DNA of 64,000 nt from Escherichia coli (GTDB lineage: Bacteria; Pseudomonadota; Gammaproteobacteria; Enterobacterales; Enterobacteriaceae), in assembly GCF_003018255.1 (NCBI RefSeq), contig NZ_CP027441.1. One strand, written 5' to 3'. Below, piece by piece: positions 6,001 to 9,000 of this stretch (the stretch's first letter is position 1; every line of letters begins with the position of its first letter). Position numbers: made by a program.

Positions 6001-9000
6001 AACTTGTGTGTGTGATTCAGCCCGACAGAAAATGAAGTGAGTTTACGGCTGCTGCCCTGAAGCAGAACATCATCCAGATAATTGTGAATAATGCGGTGCT
6101 GCAGACCTCCGGTCAGTGCTGTCTTCATGTCCCCGTTACGGAACAGGACATGCGACAGTCCCAGCCGGTGAGTCTGCAGGTCTCCCGTGGAACGCCACCG
6201 CCAGCCCCGGTTATCAATGGTGCTGAGGTAGTCACTCCATGAATACGTGTAATCCACCAGGGTATAGCCATACGGCAGACTGACACCGGCGGCAAAATTC
6301 CTCGCATCATGTGACACCGAAAAGTCACTGCTCCGTCCCCCGCTGACAAACCAGTTGTCAGCCAGCCCCAGCGGATTATTAAAGGAAAGGACACCATTTA
6401 ACTGCCCCGTACCGGTATTCTTCTGTCCGCTGTTGTCGATGCCCACGCTCCCTGTGACAGGCCATTCCGGCGATGCCGTCAGTGTCACCACCGACCATCC
6501 CTCACGGTCACCGGGCGATATTTCAATCTGTACCGGCTCCGTACGCAGACGGTTAATCTGCTCCATCCCCTGCTCAATATCCCGCAGGTTCAGAACCTTC
6601 CCCTCCATTCCCGGGAAAACCATCTTCAGGGTGCGGCCAGGAAGGTCAGCGCCTTCCGCCCGGATTTGCTGCAGCCTGCCTTCTATGACCGTTATGTGCA
6701 GTACGCCCCCTGAAAGGTCCTGCTCTGTCAGAAAGGCCCGGCTGGTGATATATCCCCGGCGTATATAGCCGTCCGTCACGGCATCCGTGACCGCGGTCAG
6801 CCCCGTGATATTCAGACACTGATTCACCCACGGTGCCACCAGTCTGTCGGTTTCTGCAGACGTCAGTCGGGTGGCCCCACTGACAACAATGCGTGACACC
6901 GTAAAGCAGGGACCTTCAGTACCGGCAGACATTTCCGGAGACGGTATGACAGTCAGCGGCGCACTGCGCTCCAGCGCATCACGCTGACGCTGGTTTTCAT
7001 CCAGCAACTGCTGCTGTTGCTGCTGAATGGCACTGCGGTCACCCGGAGACAGCATGGCAGCCGGAGACGAAAACGAAAGAATGCAAAGGCAGGAGAGGAG
7101 GGGAAAATAGCGTGCCACCGGAGAGAAAGTGCGGAGCTTAAATGCGCACTGGCCGGAAACCATACCAGGCAACAACGTTCTGTTCGCCAGTAAGTTATCC
7201 TGCCGGTGCTGCATATTCTCCTCGTGGGGTATCCAGTGTAAATTAACGTAAGTGGAATGTCAGTGCTGAAATTTACACCCGATAAAAAACATACTGAAAC
7301 AATCCTGTTATGTAAAGTCCGGGAAAAATGTCAGAAATGTGATTAGCGTTGTGGTTTACAGAGGGGAAGGGAAAACAGACATTCTTGCCTGACGTGCTCA
7401 GCGCCCCCCTGGAGAGGTTCACATAAAAGCTGTCCTGCAATTTGCGGGTAACCACTTCTGTCATCAAGCCGCTGGCACGAATGCTGTGGTGCGGCTGAGA
7501 GCCGCAGAGGGGAAACTACGTCCATGTTGAGGGAAACGGAGCAAAAAAGCCCCACTCATACCCTGTATCAATCAGTGTCATCCGGTTTAACAGTCATTTC
7601 CGTTCATATGGTGCACAAGGAGTTTTGAAGAAACATCCGTTTTGTGGTGTTTTTTTAATCTTTTGGGAATTTTAATTCCTGTCGTTCAGGCAGAAGAAAC
7701 AGATGAATGCTCTCTGTGACAGCCATATTGTCACGGGGCTTAATACCGTTTGTTAAAAAACGTACTTTGCGTACGGTTGGGCTTCAGACCCCGTAAACGC
7801 CAGGCAGCAGCCGTGGTTAAGATAATGTTCAACGGCAACCGCCTCCCAAATTCTGGTCTGGCAGGTAATAGGTGTTGGCTCCGCGCTTGCCGTTGGTGGT
7901 TGTTCTGGTTACGGTGATTTGCCCTGCCTGTTCCAGTATCTGAATTGCCCGCTTAACACTCTGTCGACTAATACCGGAGAGGCTTACCAGTTCAGTGATT
8001 GAGATTTGATTTTGTCCGGCAGCAATGACGCTGGCGATTACACACAGGATTGAATTTGTCGTTTTCAATGTCAGCGCCCCTTATCCTGCCAGGCCATGTT
8101 TTTTCTTGCAGCTGTCTGGATGTCGTCCGAAGGTCATCGAATTATAGTTCAAAGAAAAAAGATATCGAGCAATGCGAGTTCTTTTTCTCCTTATGCCGCG
8201 CCAGCGGCATGGAAGGCGGCACGCTGTGGTTACATGTGATACAGGAGTAAAACCGCCGAAGCCCGGCGTAAGCCGGTACTGATTGACAGATTTCACCTTA
8301 CCCATCCTCAGCCCTGCCAGACCATACCCGCTTTCAGCCATGAGAGAGCTTCTGTGCGCGGTCGGAGTGGTCCCGACGAGGGTTTACCCGAAGTCGGGGC
8401 GTATCTCCGCGTTAGCGGGCCTTCAGGGCCGCTTACGAGCGTGTACTGAGAACATCCAGCCAGAAGACTGACAGCGACGATGCCCTTAGTTACAACATTC
8501 ATAATTAAAAGCGACTCTGTTCCGGCCCTTTGGGCCGGGGCGGGGCCGCTTTTCAGTTATGAGGGAGGGGCACGGTGCTGCGTTTGTGTGGTGTTTTTTA
8601 TTCCTGGTGTTTTCGCGGTGGTTTCAGAACGGTGATGTACGGGGCCCGCGCGTTAGCGTGGGAGGTGCTTTTAGATTCTGAGCGGCGCGGCCTTGGCCGC
8701 TGCAAGCGAAGGCCTTTTTGTGTTTGTTCACAGTGGGTTCAGAGATAAAGACTTTCCCTGCGGCGAAGCAACGTAGGGGATTAAATAATGGGGTTAAGAT
8801 TATATTGCAGGTTTGCTGTTTCACGTTTGCAGCTTTTTAAAGTTCTTTATTTGCGGATTTATGTGGATAACTGAAACAACGTGGCCATGTTCTGATGACT
8901 GATACGTGGTTTTATGGGCAGATATGCCCCTCTGAGGGAATTTAAGGTGATTACTGCAGATTTTGGGCTGAGCGGAACCAGCGCCGAAAGCCCCGGAGGG

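Follow-up and report, generated by a model that had tools for sequence, protein, structure and literature searches.

The GC-rich DNA downstream of repA in the Escherichia coli replicon studied here is the repA4 region common to IncFII and I-complex replicons, and we consider it likely that this block combines a + strand signal of the G4 type, at which primase alone would start the leading strand, with a fork-arresting Ter site, as published for R1. It is a real, functionally important and already described replication element, and neither a new RNA nor a new system. Our observations are best explained if the repA4 region is where a single round of unidirectional theta replication both starts and finishes. 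In R1, two ter sites are located between oriR and the start of the leading strand (PMC10331603), and the repA4 region, which carries the ter sites, has been shown by TraDIS to be needed for the stable maintenance of an ST131 resistance plasmid whose replicon is 99% identical to that of R100 (PMC4398462). R1 and R100 are the only replicons of the group to have been studied in depth. The stretch of DNA analyzed here, referred to below as the window, comprises 64,000 nucleotides (64 kb) of contig NZ_CP027441.1.

Position, limits and distribution of the block

The replicon of the window is of the I-complex type, with a RepZ-type RepA and a PK-repZ leader (156 bits with the Rfam model) that is followed by repA, as opposed to the IncFII type of R1 and R100. 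The block (8193-8720) is rich in GC, and no ORF is conserved in it. Its neighbors are a small wHTH gene (7829-8068, minus strand), which has weak MarR/HTH matches in Pfam, on one side and the DnaA box TGTGGATAA (8862-8870) on the other, and the block is therefore downstream of both repA (10113..9037, minus strand) and the PK-repZ leader. The origin landmarks (8796-8870, minus strand) are, besides the DnaA box, the sequence TTAAGA (reverse complement TCTTAA) at 8796-8801 and the TTGCAG(G/C)TTT repeats at 8805-8836; we take TCTTAA and the repeats to be origin elements on the strength of published work on the IncB plasmid pMU720.

An initial annotation of this DNA had noted a GC-rich stretch between the wHTH gene and the DnaA box, and indeed the GC content is 0.555-0.595 across 8200-8700 (in 200-nt windows), compared with 0.415-0.485 in the flanks and a window mean of 0.518. 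The interval assigned to that stretch, 8280-8720, does belong to a conserved block, but its start was misplaced: conservation begins at 8193, and the likely priming signal (8263-8444) occupies the left third of the interval and the DNA just outside it. Every relative aligns from base 8193 exactly, and the DNA to the left varies among plasmids. At this boundary is a hairpin (8193-8210, + strand), ATGCCGC-GCCA-GCGGCAT, that contains a GCGNNAGC mini-hairpin motif and that, in a pCRY-like copy, has lost one base from each arm with its pairing kept.

The comparison with R100, our reference plasmid for the R1 type, had been proposed in the initial annotation and proved informative: the 380 bp at 8192-8571 of the window have 95.5% identity to R100, in DNA that is downstream of repA1 and the DnaA box there as well. 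This identity, together with the location of the R1 start in the homologous region (PMC10331603), upholds the earlier suggestion of a single-strand initiation (ssi) site at an IncFII-like position. The evidence given below points to a primase-only signal and not to primosome assembly by PriA. Other IncFII plasmids share about 95% identity with the block, which is likewise present in IncI-gamma/K plasmids and was matched in more than 5000 plasmid records and in 4098 of 5426 complete E. coli genomes (75%); no match was found in a phage collection. In replicons of Yersinia, Erwinia, Serratia and Klebsiella the element is again downstream of repA, its position and orientation unchanged. The R100 DNA matched here must include the G site, and the block shares with R1/R100 both this DNA and its placement with respect to repA, the DnaA box and the Ter sites. 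ColIb-P9, an I-complex replicon with the same origin type as the window, also has an ssi signal, which Tanaka et al. in 1991 reportedly described as "close to the replication origin"; its counterpart in the block may be either the 8263-8444 element or the origin-proximal hairpin E2 (8687-8706).

A folded + strand and a candidate primase start

Folded as single-stranded DNA, 8193-8720 has an energy of -106.3 kcal/mol on the + strand and -96.6 kcal/mol on the minus strand, the + strand being more stable by 10 kcal/mol; relative to shuffled sequences, the z-scores are -2.9 and -2.1, respectively, and only one of 100 shuffles folded as well as the + strand. A separate pair of folds gave z-scores of -3.0 for the + strand and -1.5 for the minus strand. 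Four of the 12 + strand GCGNNAGC motifs in the 64 kb, and both of its + strand GCGTTAGC motifs, fall within 8198-8657, and no mini-hairpin motif was found on the minus strand between 7884 and 9079. Conserved structure across related replicons, as the initial annotation had anticipated, is borne out by compensatory base changes among genera in three of the hairpin systems of the block. As judged by G.T cells, mini-hairpin motifs and fold energy, the + strand is the folded strand, it being understood that folding and covariation do not distinguish single-stranded DNA from a + strand RNA.

The most highly conserved part of the block is an 89-nt core (8356-8444, + strand), with hardly any variation in six genera, that forms a three-way hairpin structure with the invariant blocks CGCGGTCGGAGTGGTC, GGGGCGTATCTCCGCGTTAGCGGGCC and GGGCCGCTTACGAGCGTGT. 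In an alignment (A2) of 14 sequences from Escherichia, Salmonella, Klebsiella, Yersinia, Erwinia, Serratia and Proteus, 98.2% of the cells of the core are paired, and compensatory change is seen at five pairs. None of 500 shuffles reached its covariation score, and slid controls were 35-51% paired. The + strand has 43 G.T cells, the equivalent of which on the minus strand would be A.C mismatches. A covariance model of the core gave one strong match in the 64-kb window, on the + strand (128 bits, the window being a training sequence), and no further copy. The published R100 G site consists of conserved domains with a dispensable internal part between them, which resemble the invariant blocks and the variable hairpin of alignment A2, respectively. 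We infer which sub-element of the block corresponds to the published R1/R100 G site, of which the core is probably the recognition part.

A candidate for the start itself is the CTG at 8314-8316 (+ strand), at which a primer would be started opposite T8315 and be extended in the direction of lower coordinates, leaving the origin behind. This assignment, made from sequence, rests on conservation of the triplet and its spacing: of 18 loci, drawn from six genera, 17 have the CTG (TTG replaces it in the remaining relative, L014), and it is 47 nt 5' of the core anchor in 15 of the 17, the other two spacings being 48 and 52 nt. The sequence that comes after it in relatives, C(A/T)AAGCCA, is identical to that at the starts of phages G4 (CTGCAAAGCCA) and alpha3 (CTGCTAAGCC); the window's own motif at this place, CCAGACCA, is a poorer match to G4. 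On the 5' side of the template, about 38 nt from the candidate start, is a GC mini-hairpin (8263-8276, + strand), CCGGC-GTAA-GCCGG, with a GCGTAAGC motif. Its equivalents in Y. pestis pCD and in Erwinia, Proteus and Serratia copies have GCG(N)NAGC loops, and its motif class is that of the hairpin I loop in the G4, St-1 and alpha3 origins (PMC13037366).

The likeness to the complementary-strand origins of G4, St-1, phiK and alpha3 consists of a start CTG with C(A/T)AAGCC after it, a hairpin-rich template strand, and GC hairpins with GCG(N)NAGC mini-hairpin loops, the GCGTTAGC motif being identical to that of St-1 and alpha3. The arrangement differs, however: in the phages the hairpins are 5' of the CTG, hairpin I ending 4 nt before it, whereas in the block the CTG has the strongest conserved structure on its 3' side and the mini-hairpin some 38 nt away on its 5' side. 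Nor is there overall sequence similarity, as BLAST of the G4 origin against the block returned only chance-level words, and aligning the phage origins and the window with MAFFT was uninformative overall. A 9-mer from the BLAST comparison, CGGAGATAC (minus strand, E 2.3), was considered as a hint of a minus-strand site and dropped on the evidence of strand bias.

Two other CTG triplets were considered as starts. That at 8446-8448, in a TACTG directly past the core, was rejected in that it is missing from three relatives (L009, L012 and L021) and from most other genera. That at 8279-8281, in a TACTG directly past the mini-hairpin, has the most G4-like geometry and was demoted, being missing from L025, from Y. 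pestis and Erwinia, and from the pCRY-like copy. The start is described as being 400 bp downstream of oriR, a distance that does not discriminate among the candidates since oriR is 188 bp long and the candidate CTGs are about that far apart; both of these triplets fit it about as well as 8314-8316 does, depending on the end of oriR that is chosen. In R100 the equivalent of the CTG at 8314-8316 is approximately 363 bp past the 188-bp oriR, counting from the DnaA box, and is at about 90,396 of the R100 record, within 90,267-90,448.

A predicted polar Ter site and the remaining hairpins

On the minus strand at 8483-8505 is a predicted Tus-binding Ter site, 5'-ATTATGAATGTTGTAACTAAGGG-3', which the initial annotation did not include. 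We required a 23-bp site with the core GTTGTAACTAA and G at position 6, the TerB sequence and polarity having been calibrated on MG1655. The site at 8483-8505 is the sole mismatch-free match in the window (the second match listed has one mismatch), and 17 of its 23 positions agree with TerB, among them G6 and all of the core (positions 8-20). Copies from IncFII, Y. pestis pCD, Erwinia, Klebsiella FIIK and Serratia have conserved the site, which is mutated in a remnant that lacks rep (L010). Judging from its orientation, its blocking face would be toward the origin, so as to arrest forks arriving from the origin and repA side, in keeping with the published scheme for R1.

In R1, one ter site immediately blocks a fork heading back to oriR, and the other stops the fork that has completed the circle (PMC10331603; PMC7174701). 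The Ter site of the window is the homologue of the origin-distal member of this fork trap (terRL/terRR), with the same flanks and the same polarity. At the place of the other member is Ter-b (8610-8632, + strand), the decayed remnant of a second, oppositely oriented Ter: IncFII, R100, Y. pestis pCD, Erwinia and Klebsiella FIIK copies have GTTGTAACTAA or GCTGTAACTAA here, whereas I-complex copies have GGTGGTTTCAGAA, and Serratia copies likewise lack an origin-proximal Ter. With the origin-proximal site decayed, the I-complex would have a single polar barrier, in contrast to the two-site trap of R1 and R100.

The polarity of Ter and a uniformly negative GC skew together identify the + strand as the leading-strand template. 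When the window is divided into eight 8-kb bins, every bin has a negative + strand skew, which would be predicted for a single fork heading toward lower coordinates. Reading away from the origin, the order of elements is origin, Ter, core and CTG, which agrees with the description of R1.

Both of the perfect hairpins that the initial annotation reported (8522-8538 and 8687-8700) are exact, but neither is a good candidate for the priming signal. The first, CCGGCCC-TTT-GGGCCGG, is the tip of a terminator-like 22-bp hairpin beside Ter (8507-8553, + strand; inverted repeat 8507-8528/8532-8553), which has an A-run on one flank and a T-run on the other. The longer hairpin is paired in 93.4% of its cells in alignment A4, with six compensatory pairs and a score reached by none of 500 shuffles; pairing is complete on the + strand only, which has 35 U.G cells. 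From its sequence, it looks like a bidirectional intrinsic terminator. The second is a separate, origin-adjacent hairpin, E2 (8687-8719, + strand), in which GCGGCC-TT-GGCCGC (8687-8700) is followed by an invariant CGCTGCAAG with a CTG at 8700-8702. All cells of E2 are paired in alignment A3, with compensatory change in three of the six pairs. E2 is kept, with compensatory changes, in the I-complex, Yersinia pCD, Erwinia and Klebsiella FIIK, and it is deleted in R1/R100 and missing from R100-type IncFII. In I-complex copies a T-run (8715-8719) comes after the hairpin, and alternative arms (8689-8697/8706-8714) with this T-run resemble a + strand terminator. Between Ter and E2 is hairpin C (8645-8662, + strand), CCCGCGC-GTTA-GCGTGGG, which has the second GCGTTAGC motif of the window. 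As judged by eye, IncFII, pCRY-like, Erwinia, Klebsiella, Proteus and Serratia copies all keep it; stem pairs are swapped among them, the loops are of the GCG(N)NAGC form and, in five lineages, there is a G.T at one and the same stem position.

Alternative readings and a model for replication

Transcription termination offers a different account of the hairpins, one that the initial annotation had raised: the block could be mainly a cluster of intrinsic terminators, with no role in priming, that shields the origin from transcription on the cargo side and the cargo from read-through out of repA. A GC-rich hairpin followed by a T-run, our criterion for an intrinsic terminator, is present at 8507-8553 in both directions, thanks to the A-run on one side and the T-run on the other, and at 8689-8714 with TTTTT on the + strand; 8645-8662 (+ strand) and 8268-8254 (minus strand) were also terminator-like in the scan, and working terminators would give rise to compensatory changes such as those in the hairpins. 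The most conserved part of the block, however, is the core, a three-way junction with no T-run, and E2 in Yersinia, Erwinia and Klebsiella keeps its hairpin and CGCTGCAAG with no T-run. The Ter site, the fixed-distance CTG and the phage-like start motif would also be left unexplained. Termination is tenable only as an added role for the two hairpins with T-runs, and as an account of the block as a whole we regard it as rather unlikely. A structured non-coding RNA, transcribed from the + strand over approximately 8193-8555 and ending at the 8507-8553 terminator, would account for the terminator-like hairpin that closes the region and for the varying pairs that stay G.U-compatible on the + strand. 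The covariance-model search recommended earlier nevertheless found no Rfam family in the block (7500-10080 searched, at gathering scores and at E <=10), its matches being sok, at a distance, and PK-repZ and CopA-like hits within the rep leader. A scan of 7600-10100 for promoter-like sites returned none on the + strand, and a conserved promoter is lacking because the DNA to the left of 8193 differs among plasmids. Moreover, the Ter site would be inside the supposed transcript, and the published role of the homologous R1/R100 region is in DNA replication. The small RNA of the initial annotation is, we believe, very improbable.

Scarcely more credible is a PriA-dependent (phiX174-type) primosome assembly site. 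Stable hairpins in single-stranded DNA near an origin are typical of such sites too, for which we know of no sequence consensus, but the strand bias places the structure on the leading-strand template, the conserved CTG and the G4-like start motif mark direct recognition by primase, and the R1/R100 site is described as primase-only and of the G4 type. There is next to no chance, finally, that the block is a protein-coding gene, repA4, even though RefSeq and older annotations put RepA4 or hypothetical ORFs there. The RefSeq RepA4 feature, present in some of the matching records, is a frameshifted pseudogene, and other records have either no annotation at the block or "hypothetical protein" ORFs that we judge to be spurious. 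In agreement with the earlier statement that the block has no convincing ORF, none of its ORFs matched a Pfam or NCBIfam family, its relatives differ by indels (1, 2 and 12 nt) that include frame-breaking ones that are not multiples of three, and it is stems and loops, not codons, that are conserved. One minus-strand ORF (8311-8502) with a lipoprotein-like signal, MNVVTKGIVAVSLLAGC, was rejected, as its frame is unconserved and it has no family match.

We favor, then, the G4-type start with its Ter site, from which the following model can be drawn, the roles given to the core and the other hairpins being our inference. RepA and DnaA would open the origin at approximately 8796-8870, and DnaB would unwind the DNA toward lower coordinates. 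The displaced + strand, as leading-strand template, would fold into the conserved hairpins, and DnaG would recognize a G4-type signal, to which the core (8356-8444), the mini-hairpin (8263-8276) and the region of the start all belong, and prime the leading strand at the CTG (8314-8316), with synthesis proceeding away from the origin. The fork would circle the plasmid, re-enter through repA and the origin, and be arrested by Tus at Ter (8483-8505), approximately 170 bp short of displacing the 5' end of the new strand; over-replication and rolling-circle multimers would thereby be avoided. The hairpins at 8507-8553 and 8689-8719 probably also exclude transcription from the interval between Ter and the origin. 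As its predicted polarity implies, Tus-bound Ter faces the helicase coming from the origin and should hinder the unwinding that exposes the G site.

Two features of the block appear to be uncharacterized. The core, being 3' of the start on the template, may offer primase a platform on which to load, much as a promoter would, and in this it would be unlike the phage G4 origin; E2 with CGCTGCAAG (8687-8706) may either be a site for a host factor or give primase a second start, close to the origin. We put these two proposals forward jointly as speculation that is more probably wrong than right by a wide measure.

The block is among the most widespread non-coding elements of enterobacterial plasmids. 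A feature model for it, with the G site, Ter and the hairpins, would improve plasmid annotation, and marking the true start and end of replication would be useful in analyses of copy number and replication direction. If the proposed roles of the core and E2 are true, then the I-complex, which has also lost the second Ter, would initiate and terminate replication by a mechanism different from that of the R1 model.

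The replicon and the spread of the block

The replicon of the window belongs to the I-complex (IncI-gamma/K-type) and is read from the minus strand. Downstream of its PK-repZ pseudoknot leader (10081–10230, minus; 156 bits, Rfam) lies repA (10113..9037, minus), and the origin region holds a DnaA box, TGTGGATAA, at 8862–8870, direct repeats TTGCAG(G/C)TTT at 8805–8836, and TTAAGA at 8796–8801. Following what has been published for pMU720, an IncB plasmid, we take the repeats to be RepA boxes and TCTTAA to be within the region opened by RepA. Opposite the leader is a weak, below-threshold match to a CopA-like RNA (10144–10229, plus; 32.9 bits), which is the Inc antisense RNA expected of the I-complex copy-control system. 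In the database search CP027372, an E. coli plasmid (IncFIB + IncI-gamma/K1), matched best, with 99.8% identity. An ORF just upstream of the replicon (10770–11411, plus) bears the annotation NusG-family transcription antitermination protein in that near-identical plasmid. On the other side, a gene for a ShlB/FhaC/HecB-type outer-membrane transporter occupies 5448–7214 (minus) and continues leftward; its counterpart in CP027372 adjoins a cdiA contact-dependent inhibition toxin gene, so that a plasmid-borne CDI locus flanks the replicon. A sok antitoxin RNA match (54801–54958, minus; 119.7 bits, Rfam) indicates a hok/sok post-segregational killing locus.

Between the origin and a small wHTH gene (7829–8068) lies the non-coding block under study (8193–8720). 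The initial annotation had described a GC-rich stretch with perfect hairpins and no convincing ORF, and this description held: GC content is 0.555–0.595 over 8200–8700, against 0.415–0.485 in the flanks and a window mean of 0.518; the hairpins at 8522–8538 and 8687–8700 are both perfect; and every ORF in the block lacks Pfam and NCBIfam matches. One ORF of 64 codons (8311–8502, minus) has its ATG inside the Ter site discussed below and a lipoprotein-like N-terminal signal, MNVVTKGIVAVSLLAGC, but it has no family match, indels at 8481–8487 in relatives break its frame, and it is probably a chance ORF.

The block is widespread. By megablast, at least 5000 plasmid-collection records match it, those listed all being at least 80% identical, and for 8330–8520 at least 5000 plasmid records are listed, all at least 90% identical. 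Its 111-nt centre was found in 4098 of 5426 complete E. coli genomes, nearly always plasmid-borne. In IncFII plasmids, the DNA downstream of repA shares ~95% identity with the segment 8202–8571, and for R100 itself the identity is 95.5% over 380 bp. The initiators of the I-complex and IncFII families are only distantly related, and the block is therefore common to both families well beyond their rep genes. Given this homology and the frameshifted "RepA4" pseudogene annotated over the block in some records, it is the classical repA4 region of NR1/R100. Judged by these alignments, then, the block is a real element and, being closely homologous to a module studied by experiment, is already known. 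TraDIS showed the repA4 region, which contains the ter sites, to be needed for stable maintenance of pEC958, a plasmid with a RepFII replicon 99% identical to that of R100 (PMC4398462).

The left edge of conservation falls exactly at 8193, the base from which every relative aligns. There the replicon module ends with its first conserved element, the hairpin ATGCCGC-GCCA-GCGGCAT (8193–8210); to its left the cargo differs from plasmid to plasmid (the wHTH gene here; elsewhere yacAB, relE/parE, DUF6685, IS elements or tir-pemIK). Two copies lie in other settings. In the Salmonella plasmid CP149280 (typed IncHI1B; 1794–2270), the equivalent of 8193–8669 has a toxin-antitoxin pair on one side and cyd genes on the other, without an adjoining rep gene, and, as expected of a decaying remnant, carries a G-to-C change in the Ter core and a C-to-T change in the core hairpin. 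In the Klebsiella sp. plasmid CP064785 (890–1013), the core copy lacks Ter, has a 12-nt deletion of one hairpin arm, and adjoins a ShlB/FhaC-family gene, as the window's copy does.

A conserved core folded on the plus strand

Our alignment comprised the window and 17 relatives: copies from IncFII and IncI-gamma/K plasmids, a pCRY-like replicon, Y. pestis pCD, Erwinia, Serratia (two) and Klebsiella FIIK, and some remnants. Structure is conserved across these replicons: a core at 8356–8444, retained in all genera compared, consists of three invariant blocks, CGCGGTCGGAGTGGTC, GGGGCGTATCTCCGCGTTAGCGGGCC and GGGCCGCTTACGAGCGTGT, with a variable hairpin and a variable loop between them. On the plus strand it folds into a three-way structure in which 98.2% of cells are paired (35–51% with slid partners); five pairs show compensatory change, 0 of 500 shuffles reached the covariation score, and the RNAalifold structure is nearly identical. 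Because 43 cells are G·T pairs on the plus strand, which would be A·C mismatches on the minus strand, only ~89% of core cells would pair there. A 22-bp hairpin at 8507–8553 has the same strand bias (35 U·G cells, six compensatory pairs, 93.4% paired). As single-stranded DNA, the whole block folds at −106.3 kcal/mol on the plus strand (z −2.9 against dinucleotide shuffles) and at −96.6 kcal/mol on the minus strand (z −2.1).

Thus the plus strand is the folded strand of the block. Computation cannot tell folded plus-strand DNA from plus-strand RNA. For a plus-strand RNA, we found no promoter in 7600–10100, the upstream region is not conserved among relatives, and the Rfam covariance-model search proposed in the initial annotation returned no match for the block, even at E of 10 or less. 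Single-strand initiation, the leading suggestion of that annotation, was essentially right in kind; the signal appears to be of the primase-only (G4) type instead of the primosome type, and the hairpins cited there (8522–8538 and 8687–8700) are accessory elements. Four of the 12 plus-strand GCGNNAGC mini-hairpin motifs in the 64-kb window fall in 8198–8657, both of the window's GCGTTAGC motifs among them, and none occurs on the minus strand from 7884 to 9079. This motif class (GCGAAAGC in G4; GCGTTAGC in St-1 and alpha3) forms the loop of hairpin I where primase starts in those phages (PMC13037366).

Two further hairpins lie nearer the origin. Copies ranging from IncFII through to Serratia share hairpin C (8645–8662), whose stem pairs are swapped among them and whose loops read GCG(N)NAGC. 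E2 (8687–8700) keeps its stem through compensatory changes in five genera and is followed by an invariant CGCTGCAAG (to 8706); both are present in I-complex, Serratia, Yersinia, Erwinia and Klebsiella copies and deleted from R100-type IncFII. No other part of the block has so G4-like a geometry: a hairpin followed by CTGCAAG, resembling phage G4 hairpin I and its CTGCAAAG start. In I-complex copies a T-run follows, so E2 may also end plus-strand transcription at the origin edge.

A candidate primase start

The host primase DnaG starts primers at 5'-CTG-3'; the annotated G4 primer runs from 3997 down to 3970 and starts within CTACTGCAAAGCC. Three plus-strand CTGs were considered. The one at 8446–8448 is missing from loci L009, L012 and L021 and from most other genera, and that at 8279–8281 from locus L025, Y. 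pestis, Erwinia and the pCRY-like copy. Of 18 loci, 17 keep the third (8314–8316), and its distance 5' of the core anchor is exactly 47 nt in 15 of these. Among relatives it is followed by CAAAGCCA or CTAAGCCA, giving the same 10–11 nt as the starts of G4 (CTGCAAAGCCA) and alpha3 (CTGCTAAGCC). This likeness fits what Tanaka et al. reportedly stated in 1994, namely that between the G sites of phages and those of plasmids there is only "limited sequence homology near the start position." Papers on R1 reportedly put the start 380–400 bp from oriR. With a 188-bp oriR (PMC5883639) counted from the DnaA box, the counterpart of CTG 8314–8316 lies ~363 bp downstream of oriR in R100 and 364 bp in locus L002; measured from the opposite end of oriR, the other candidate CTGs fit the R1 range too. 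Going by conservation, spacing and the phage-like motif, we place the putative primer start at T8315 with moderate confidence; that the G site lies somewhere in 8263–8450 on the plus strand we regard as quite likely.

A predicted polar barrier to the returning fork

Absent from the initial annotation was a Ter site, 5'-ATTATGAATGTTGTAACTAAGGG-3', running from 8505 to 8483 on the minus strand, the sole mismatch-free Ter-like match in the window. We calibrated its sequence and polarity on TerB of E. coli MG1655 (AATAAGTATGTTGTAACTAAAGT, plus strand, just upstream of tus), which stops clockwise forks, that is, those heading to higher coordinates. Of the 23 positions, 17 are identical between the two, among them G6 and the whole of 8–20. 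By this calibration, the site is predicted to block forks moving from high to low coordinates, arriving through repA and the origin. The 8507–8553 hairpin adjoins it and is kept in all genera that retain Ter; with its A-run and T-run it looks like a bidirectional terminator.

IncFII, R100, Y. pestis pCD, Erwinia and Klebsiella FIIK carry a second Ter in opposite orientation ~115 bp closer to the origin, which in I-complex copies has decayed to GGTGGTTTCAGAA (8610–8632) and which the Serratia copies also lack. R1 has two ter sites between oriR and the point where the leading strand starts: one immediately blocks a fork running back toward oriR, and the other halts the fork after its trip round the plasmid (PMC10331603); without Tus, rolling-circle forms and multimers build up (PMC7174701). 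Thus the window would keep the homologue of the round-ending site and have lost the blocker of back-running forks.

A primer made on the plus-strand template would extend away from repA and the origin toward lower coordinates, which agrees with the Ter polarity and with the R1 order of origin, ter and start (PMC10331603). The returning fork would enter through repA and the origin and halt at 8505, ~170–190 bp before the 5' end of its own strand. Plus-strand GC skew stays below zero in each of the eight 8-kb bins and does not switch sign at the origin; it agrees with this direction but is weak evidence because gene orientation affects it too. An origin-loaded helicase must pass Ter in the blocking direction before the G site is exposed; the same holds in R100 and, according to a review, R1, so the trait belongs to the system already known and is not peculiar to the window.

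By sequence comparison, I-complex and Serratia replicons would thus have one polar barrier and not a two-site trap. The comparative anatomy may extend beyond what has been described, in the invariant core that lies 3' of a CTG at a fixed distance, in E2 and in the loss of the second Ter from I-complex replicons.
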